The notes beneath the pieces are model-generated. The model did not search any database and had not been told where the DNA came from. It saw only the letters and a program-made list of their open reading frames with translations. This document shows positions 31,765-32,007 of a stretch of 60,175 nucleotides of DNA, piece by piece. The stretch lies in the IMG/VR virus record IMGVR_UViG_3300045988_134226; one strand, given 5' to 3'. How positions within the stretch are numbered: the first letter of the stretch is position 1; every line of letters starts with the position of its first letter. Source of the stretch: a virus. Position numbers and translations under genes: made by a program.

Positions 31765-31834
31765 TCCATATAGAATTTTGTTTTGCTCCATATAGAAGCG
31801 TTTTTGCATATAAAAAAGACACTCCATATAGAAG
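31765..31834 (-). repeat. Three direct copies of TTCTATATGGA(G) upstream of the scaffold gene
   Basis: Plus-strand (c)tccatatagaa(g) occurs at 31765-31775, 31786-31798 and 31822-31834. The last copy forms the loop and 3' arm of the terminator hairpin. Confidence 0.85.
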
Positions 31835-31841
31835 TGTCTTT
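31812..31841 (-). terminator. Strong intrinsic terminator ending the 32k leader RNA
   Basis: Minus-strand AAAGACACU-UCUAUAUGG-AGUGUCUUU followed by UUUUAUAU. Confidence 0.8.
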
Positions 31842-32007
31842 TAAATTATTTTTTATTGCCCTACTTAGTGGCAAGGGCTTTCCGTTTTAAATTAAGGGGG
31901 TGGGTAAATTATGAATAAAGAGCAACTCGTATATATTAAATAAGGGAACACCCACCCCCAAGTGGATAGGAAAGGTACTACCCACGGTGAGTTCACACTC
32001 TCACCTA
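31812..32007 (-). ncRNA. Candidate roughly 195-nt structured leader/small RNA (from promoter P32 to the terminator)
   Basis: No ORF. Hairpins GGUGAG/CUCACC, GUGGGUAG/CUAUCCAC, long-range GGGGGUGGGU/ACCCACCCCC (31905-14 / 31950-59) and GCCCU/AGGGC, then the terminator. Confidence 0.5.

Follow-up and report, generated by a model that had tools for sequence, protein, structure and literature searches.

A predicted structured small RNA in a cargo hot-spot and a triple-hairpin leader ahead of the scaffold gene in a temperate phage of gut Clostridia

The non-coding gap ahead of the scaffold gene was analysed in a viral DNA of 60,175 nucleotides (IMG/VR record IMGVR_UViG_3300045988_134226), which is referred to at its full length as the window. 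Judged by comparison with related phages, the RNA body NEVERTHELESS in this gap appears to be a real, conserved structured RNA that forms a small, previously undescribed family, and the interval is supported as a predicted independent minus-strand small-RNA gene with its own strong promoter. The terminator of this unit is common property rather than the RNA's own, being hairpin 1 of a triple-hairpin element. The first-pass annotation overlooked that this terminator hairpin is followed by two more with the same loop, and that the set of three is the widely conserved feature of the region. On the alignments, this triple-hairpin leader is a widespread and undescribed element with strong support from covariation. 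The site between the MuF/88-aa module and the scaffold gene, as far as the gene content of relatives indicates, is a cargo hot-spot.

The source of the window is a temperate siphophage or prophage of gut Clostridia. It was taken as temperate because a serine integrase (53822-55399, plus strand) and two HTH repressors (plus strand) are present. The minus strand carries nearly all the genes, including the replication module, TerS, TerL and an ArpU/Alt-like late activator (39729-40142). The portal (34243-35742) is followed by a MuF protein of 617 aa (32322-34175, minus strand), an 88-aa ORF of no known family (32066-32332, minus strand), the gap, the DUF4355 scaffold protein (31064-31747) and then the major capsid protein (29886-31016). 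The MAGs and isolates that contain related prophages belong to Ruminococcus, Oscillospiraceae, Acutalibacteraceae, Lachnospiraceae and other Clostridia, and the nearest phage capsids in GenBank are only ~35% identical to that of the window. The first-pass annotation had described a gap of 243 bp with no ORF. Its non-coding character was upheld; the gap extends over 318 nt (31748-32065), with the scaffold start at ATG 31747, behind AGGAGG, and not at GTG 31822, and it does contain mechanical ORFs that are 32 and 34 codons long.

The MuF protein has a C-terminal extension of ~210 aa past the MuF domain (residues 391-603), which corresponds to phrog_8314 and has no Pfam match. The 88-aa ORF overlaps the end of the MuF gene, and 45 homologue clusters were obtained for its product. 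In 24/24 loci fetched via the 88-aa protein of the window and 11 of these 45 clusters, the homologue is located immediately 3' of the preceding ORF and overlaps it, and this ORF has a Phage_Mu_F match wherever a match is recorded. The two proteins are a candidate MuF polymorphic-toxin/immunity pair. Past the lysis genes is a block (258-6182, minus strand) whose products are a large protein similar to methyltransferases (258-1946), one similar to PAPS reductases (3673-4962) and a helicase (4944-6182). The block could be flanking host DNA, or else an island concerned with DNA modification or defence.

The perfect TTGACA-17-TATAAT promoter proposed earlier was recovered at 32042-32014 on the minus strand (TTGACA 32042-32037, 17-nt spacer, TATAAT 32019-32014), with a 12/12 match to the sigma-70/sigma-A consensus. 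Three such perfect sites are present in the window, against 0.06 expected from shuffles. The same promoter including its spacer is kept in L030, L112, L114 and L115, loci that are described below, and a homologous promoter, spacer included, is found ahead of tRNA-Trp in L004. The proposed terminator, a stem plus U6, was also confirmed at 31842-31812 (minus strand). It has a 12-bp stem, AAAAGACACUUC/GGAGUGUCUUUU, a UAUAU loop and a folding energy of -14.5 kcal/mol, and the predicted hairpin (31842-31814) with its U tract up to 31812 has the form of an intrinsic (Rho-independent) terminator. Transcription from this consensus sigma-A/sigma-70-type promoter would start near 32007 and end at 31812, yielding an RNA of ~196 nt. 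Among the options that the first-pass annotation offered, a stand-alone sRNA is the best fit to this structured, non-coding unit of ~195 nt from promoter to terminator. Two further perfect TTGACA-17-TATAAT promoters on the minus strand (18458-18486 and 46491-46519) have spacers that resemble that of the 32042 promoter. Both are followed by a structured leader of ~85-110 nt and then by a protein gene, which starts at ATG 18346 after the tail genes in the first case and encodes a DnaD-like loader (start ATG 46362) in the second.

The minus-strand RNA (32008-31810) was predicted to fold with -65.6 kcal/mol, compared with -43.5 +/- 4.5 kcal/mol for shuffled sequences (z = -4.9). The plus strand likewise folds well (z = -4.1); the minus strand was assigned because the promoter and the G.U pairs are functional only there. 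In line with the earlier claim of at least four minus-strand helices, the fold comprises P1 (32005-31986), P2 (31985-31962), P3 (31959-31950 with 31905-31896) and P4 (31878-31858). P3, GGGGGUGGGU/ACCCACCCCC, is the 10-bp G/C-rich long-range pairing that had been noticed before; it held as a helix and was found to enclose 44 nt, not ~35. In the family architecture, the 5' start AUAGGUGA is followed by the hairpins P1 and P2, the latter with CCUUUCC conserved in its loop, and by the long-range P3 of 10-11 bp. The interior of P3 is variable in length and sequence and opens with a pyrimidine-rich UUCYCCUU-like stretch. The segment GGAAAG (31883-31878), just 5' of P4, is complementary to CUUUCC of the P2 loop (31975-31969), which makes a pseudoknot possible. 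This pairing is probably not essential, since L030 lacks the segment and L112/L115 do not clearly retain it.

DNA searches retrieved only near-identical copies from independent assemblies (L063-L066) and one variant, L030. Few SNPs separate the near-identical copies and P3 tolerates them. RNAalifold detected zero compensatory pairs among these close copies, and uncompensated pair breaks were produced by the SNPs G31956T and C31897A and by one change in L030. Diverged versions were reached through homologues of the 88-aa protein and their contigs. These were L114, which is almost identical to the window save for an HNH insertion, L112/L113 and L115-L117, all located, like L030, 3' of the 88-aa homologues with the same promoter and the same AUAGGUGA start. 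Covariation appeared only once the diverged homologues were included. As MAFFT mis-aligned their helices, pairs were counted by script, and the P3 arms of L112 and L115, which the covariance model left unaligned, were placed by eye.

In the manual pair table, P2 was paired in 56/56 cells and showed double-sided changes in 7/8 pairs, its stem shifting from GUGGGUAG/CUAUCCAC to ACUCGGUG/CACCGAGU and to CUUGAUAG/CUAUCAAG. The loop U(A/CU)CCUUUC was constant, and CCUUUCC was retained though the stem was wholly replaced. For P3, 68/70 cells were paired, with double-sided changes in 6/10 pairs in the same table and shifts from GGGGGUGGGU/ACCCACCCCC to AGAGGGUGAG/CUCACCCUCU and to GGUGGUAGAU/AUCUACCACC. 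This helix encloses 42-95 nt across versions, and the UUCYCCUU-like pyrimidine opening was present in 5/5 of them. P1 was paired in 40/42 cells, with one compensatory and two wobble changes. P4 is dispensable, since it is absent from L030. The helices are thus maintained by compensatory changes; the support for a new RNA family is moderate because only five sequence types, from one phage lineage, were sampled.

A covariance model and an Infernal search of Rfam had both been proposed as checks in the first-pass annotation. The model, trained solely on window-type and L030 sequences, recovered L115 at 33.9 bits (E 3.8e-7) and, with a weaker score of 17.4 bits (E 0.016), L112, the matches lying exactly behind their promoters. 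The Rfam 15 search returned no family, either for the whole window at gathering thresholds or for 31650-32150, where the best score was 23.5 bits against a threshold of 55. When the RNA was compared with all fetched loci by nhmmer and blastn, L114 and L030 were linked to it and L112 and L115 were not; no antisense site for the RNA was detected within the window by these programs. In IMG/VR, the P1/P2 pattern and the promoter-plus-start pattern each returned L030 alone. The P3 pattern search gave L030 only, plus unrelated G-rich inverted repeats. One metagenome scan yielded one near-identical contig, and BLAST of the 421-nt region against GenBank phages gave no match.

The absence of a tRNA-like cloverleaf from the RNA, noted earlier, was borne out by ARAGORN and the Rfam tRNA model. 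The suggestion of a riboswitch-like sensor was not sustained, given the absence of an Rfam match and a P3 interior that varies in length and sequence. It was also considered whether the gap encodes a small protein. A hydrophobic, type I toxin-like peptide of 34 aa would extend from GTG 31996 to a stop ending at 31892, with its AGGUGA Shine-Dalgarno sequestered in P1. The window, L114 and L030 all have this frame open, and the indels between window and L030 keep it. However, early stops or the lack of a start break the 34-codon frame in L112 and L115 despite the retained helices, and for this reason the RNA element was regarded as non-coding. Moreover, all four SNPs are non-synonymous, the peptide contains no charged residue and no antisense promoter is located opposite. 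The element does not qualify as a type I toxin or small-protein gene, and this reading is largely refuted and scarcely credible. A plus-strand ORF of 10 codons inside P3 was rejected, as it is not conserved in L030.

The slot between the upstream ORF and hairpin 1 is occupied in diverse ways among relatives. It is empty, with nothing before hairpin 1, in L012 and L127, which have the same terminator and scaffold leader and no RNA. One to about nine tRNA genes are present in L001-L004, L017, L022, L070, L118, L120, L122, L124, L126 and L128; in L002, L004, L017, L022, L070 and L118 it was observed that tRNAs replace the RNA while the terminator and the scaffold leader are kept. HNH homing endonucleases are found in L071 (NUMOD4+HNH_3), L112 (phrog_374, 5e-77), L114, L120 and L124, and small ORFs also occupy the slot in relatives. 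Since relatives swap or omit them, the promoter and the RNA were classified as optional cargo, outside the scaffold leader. With its own promoter and terminator, in a temperate phage, and patchy among relatives, the unit has the properties of a moron. In L112 and L114, an HNH cassette is placed between the RNA and hairpin 1, and the RNA has no terminator of its own; there it would be the 5' part of a longer HNH transcript and may act in cis. In L115, an extra terminator is located between the RNA and hairpin 1.

These arrangements bear on the idea, raised in the first-pass annotation, that the RNA is a leader of the scaffold gene analogous to lambda 6S. HK022 put-type RNA is a two-stem RNA that makes polymerase resistant to terminators in cis. 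A cis leader or attenuator of the scaffold-capsid operon, similar to lambda pR'-6S-tR' or to put, would require that the nascent RNA or a Q-like factor modifies polymerase starting from 32042, so that it reads through hairpin 1 into the structural genes. The layout of promoter, ~195 nt, terminator and late genes is in agreement with this, P1 and P2 are adjacent stem-loops at the extreme 5' end, and late transcription has to get past hairpin 1 in every relative. The unit also shares with lambda 6S (pR' to tR') and put a constitutive promoter, a length of ~200 nt, a terminator ahead of late genes and 5' stem-loops. On the other hand, the promoter and the RNA are dispensable: hairpins 1-3 are present without the RNA in L012 and L127, many relatives have tRNAs instead, the HNH gene parts the RNA from hairpin 1 in L112 and L114, and L115 has the extra terminator. 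Neither Pfam nor PHROGs revealed a Q-like, NusG-like or other antiterminator or RNA-binding domain in 27 window ORFs, and the late activator of the window, unlike that of lambda, is ArpU/Alt-like and located 8 kb upstream. The unit is thus uncoupled from the late operon in relatives, being absent or replaced in those that keep the scaffold leader, and no Q-like gene was found among the ORFs scanned. A cis leader, whether 6S-like or put-like, is considered unlikely, and nothing was found that speaks for the put-like reading.

Alternatively, the RNA could regulate a homing-endonuclease gene as its 5' leader, with anti-SD-like loops that would close the endonuclease ribosome-binding site; in the window it would be a remnant, or a leader that the endonuclease has yet to join. 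In L112 and L114 the RNA runs straight into the HNH leader and ORF with no terminator, and L114 is nearly the same as the window except for that insertion. Nevertheless, HNH cassettes with the same leader are devoid of the RNA in L071 and L124, and the window, L030 and L115 have the RNA and no HNH gene. The simplest interpretation is that the endonuclease inserted beside a pre-existing RNA gene, and the probability given to a homing-endonuclease leader is low.

Other sequences recur in the slot. HNH genes of different families have a common leader of ~90 nt (L071 690-785, L112 ~2040-2134, L114 ~1985-2070, L124 ~2095-2183), with the sequence (G)AUAGUGAUUGCAACACGACAAGRGCGGYACUCCRACCGCY ... GGAGCGUUUACACGGAGG and a GCGG/CCGC hairpin; it could be an expression-control or homing-site element of the cassette. 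Short recurrent modules were observed between the 88-aa homologue and the tRNA genes in L118, L122, L124 and L128, where a helix like GCGGUUAUG...UAUAGACCGC surrounds a pyrimidine-rich hairpin. The stretches CUCCUUUC(C/U), recurrent by tRNA genes, resemble the 3' end of 16S rRNA. L124 contains a P4-like module (CGGAAAGCCCCUUGCGG..UAAGUAGGGG) ahead of the tRNA. An Rfam match to int-alpA RNA (56 bits, exceeding the gathering threshold) was recorded at L017 1708-1774 and has no connection with the scaffold region.

The triple-hairpin element was found by aligning the regions upstream of the scaffold homologues in IMG/VR. In this alignment the RNA body was unconserved and three copies of TTCTATAnGGA were conserved. 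In the window, which carries the complete leader on the minus strand, they form the tops of hairpin 1 (31842-31814, top 31833-31823), hairpin 2 (31799-31785, top 31797-31787) and hairpin 3 (31779-31761, top 31775-31765); the motif was found nowhere else in the 60 kb. Each hairpin is capped by a UAUAN pentaloop with C-G and then U.G as its closing pairs, and the stem below is free to vary. The loop bases are partly set by the search patterns, and loci found by protein search give the same loop, with the rare variants UACAU, UAAAA and the six-base UAUAUU. The pattern scan recovered ~20 genuine triple-hairpin loci, and more were obtained from ENA and Logan contigs. A motif-blind search of GTDB genomes with the scaffold protein gave hairpins in 14/34 prophages. 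Rfam contains no family for the element.

Covariation was evaluated over 28 distinct loci, in which 98.8% of 560 pair cells were standard and 13 pairs had double-sided changes. There were 127 compensatory cells, compared with 34.5 in shuffles, and 0/500 shuffles reached 127; all the slid controls dropped to 40-56% paired. A U run 3' of hairpin 1 was observed in all of the 19 first loci, hairpins 2 and 3 are spaced by 22-24 nt, and hairpin 3 abuts the Shine-Dalgarno sequence or, in some loci, contains it. The gene downstream is always the DUF4355 scaffold gene, and the element is present whatever cargo lies upstream. It was assigned as an RNA feature because the conserved U.G and the other G.U pairs need the sense strand. 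A DNA-level repeat or promoter was rejected on the basis of these sense-strand-only G.U pairs, the covarying stems and the absence of the motif elsewhere in the genome. CsrA was also rejected as hairpin binder, as GGA is changed to GGU, covarying with its partner, in 23/84 hairpins.

Hairpin 1 would have a double role, ending the RNA and shielding the structural genes from the constitutive cargo promoter; it probably insulates them from cargo promoters. Since late transcription has no way around hairpin 1 and all three loops are invariant, we infer that the three hairpins are sequence-specific sites for a factor that would set scaffold and capsid expression. They could be a translational operator that ends at the ribosome-binding site, a nut-like antitermination site, or a processing or stability element. 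No candidate for the binding protein emerged from the window ORFs scanned. The hairpins resemble the MS2/PP7 coat-protein operators, lambda boxB/N and the LoaP leader hairpin in being short, with an invariant loop and closing pairs and with covarying stems. They differ from these in their three copies at fixed spacing, in the first being also a terminator, and in the lack of sequence similarity. The scaffold protein of phage P22 limits its own synthesis (bioRxiv 10.1101/2022.12.13.520362). This autoregulation is the nearest biological precedent for an element that precedes a scaffold gene and whose last hairpin touches or contains the Shine-Dalgarno sequence, and by analogy a similar scaffold autoregulation, in P22 a long-known effect that lacks a mechanistic explanation, is one possibility under the operator reading.

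Distant scaffold homologues without UAUAN hairpins (L075, L077-L084) have another leader ~200 nt upstream of the scaffold start (locus ~1300-1500). It consists of a terminator, a hairpin like UGCCCUGAACAAGGCA followed by AAACUG, and 2-3 x ACUC-N5-9-GUGGGG, the last ACUC abutting the Shine-Dalgarno sequence (ACUCGAAAGGAG). This leader has no Rfam family and may represent the same regulatory design in a second "specificity type".

Regarding the RNA itself, a stand-alone small-RNA gene in the cargo hot-spot, which acts in trans and is terminated by the shared hairpin 1, is given about an even chance of being the right description. The RNA would act through two exposed pyrimidine-rich, anti-Shine-Dalgarno-like segments, the CCUUUCC loop and the UUCYCCUU stretch, which are complementary to purine-rich ribosome-binding sites and could pair with those of host or phage mRNAs. 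Pairing with Shine-Dalgarno regions would be the simplest mechanism, by analogy with the Firmicute sRNAs RoxS/RsaE, which use C-rich single-stranded seeds (PMC5419742, PMC6158497). The likeness is one of possible mechanism: the RNA is also terminator-ended and has conserved pyrimidine-rich loops that could pair with Shine-Dalgarno sequences. In contrast to RoxS/RsaE (RF01820-type), it has no Rfam match and its motif is CCUUUCC/UUCYCCUU, not CCCC, so that the pyrimidine-rich loops are the sole resemblance and membership was not assigned. Nothing outstanding was found when complementary targets were searched among 94 phage translation-initiation regions, and these short anti-SD-like stretches could serve protein binding instead.

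The main rival to a trans-acting antisense RNA is a stable RNA of the anti-defence or tRNA-island kind, which would target a host nuclease or immune sensor either as a decoy or as an inhibitor. In relatives its slot is filled by tRNA arrays and homing endonucleases, and its presence among close relatives is patchy. The tRNA cluster of T4 likewise combines two small stable RNAs, species I and II, with a homing endonuclease, SegB (PMC2330249), and anti-defence activity has been described for tRNA/segB regions (PMC13096335). As in T4, small RNAs, phage tRNA genes and a free-standing homing endonuclease are found at one site that is variable among relatives. The T4 RNAs are processed from a tRNA precursor, whereas the RNA of the window is served by a promoter and a terminator of its own in a genome that lacks tRNAs, and the endonucleases are HNH in its relatives and GIY-YIG in T4. 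The RNA has no tRNA-like features and no similarity to CRISPR repeats or known antitoxin RNAs detectable via Rfam, and location is the sole argument for an anti-defence role, which is regarded as unlikely. The trans-acting small RNA also has a parallel in AgvB and AsxR, the anti-sRNAs of EHEC prophages that are non-coding "morons" (PMC3594210, PMC4104026). As with these, it is a promoter-plus-terminator unit among late structural genes, absent or replaced in some relatives, with a small RNA as product. It differs from them in having no sequence or structural homology, in its host group of gut Clostridia and in the terminator borrowed from the conserved element of a neighbouring gene.

A more tentative and broader proposal was also formulated, in which the UC-UAUAN-GG hairpins may be protein-binding RNA operators or nut-like sites of a new class that sets scaffold and capsid synthesis in a large group of gut-Clostridia phages, with ACUC...GUGGGG as a second type in more distant relatives, and the small RNA may be a new cargo family in a tRNA/homing-endonuclease island for counter-defence or host takeover.

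Phage-encoded small RNAs of Gram-positive gut bacteria are almost uncharted, and this RNA is a concrete candidate for testing, with comparative support for its fold. Two findings have wider reach: the hot-spot where phages swap tRNA arrays, homing endonucleases and RNA genes, and the triple-hairpin scaffold leader, which is the most valuable by-product of the analysis. Its motif was seen in dozens of phages and of prophages from Ruminococcus, Oscillospiraceae, Lachnospiraceae and related groups, and would offer a direct handle on the control of head-protein stoichiometry in these phages.
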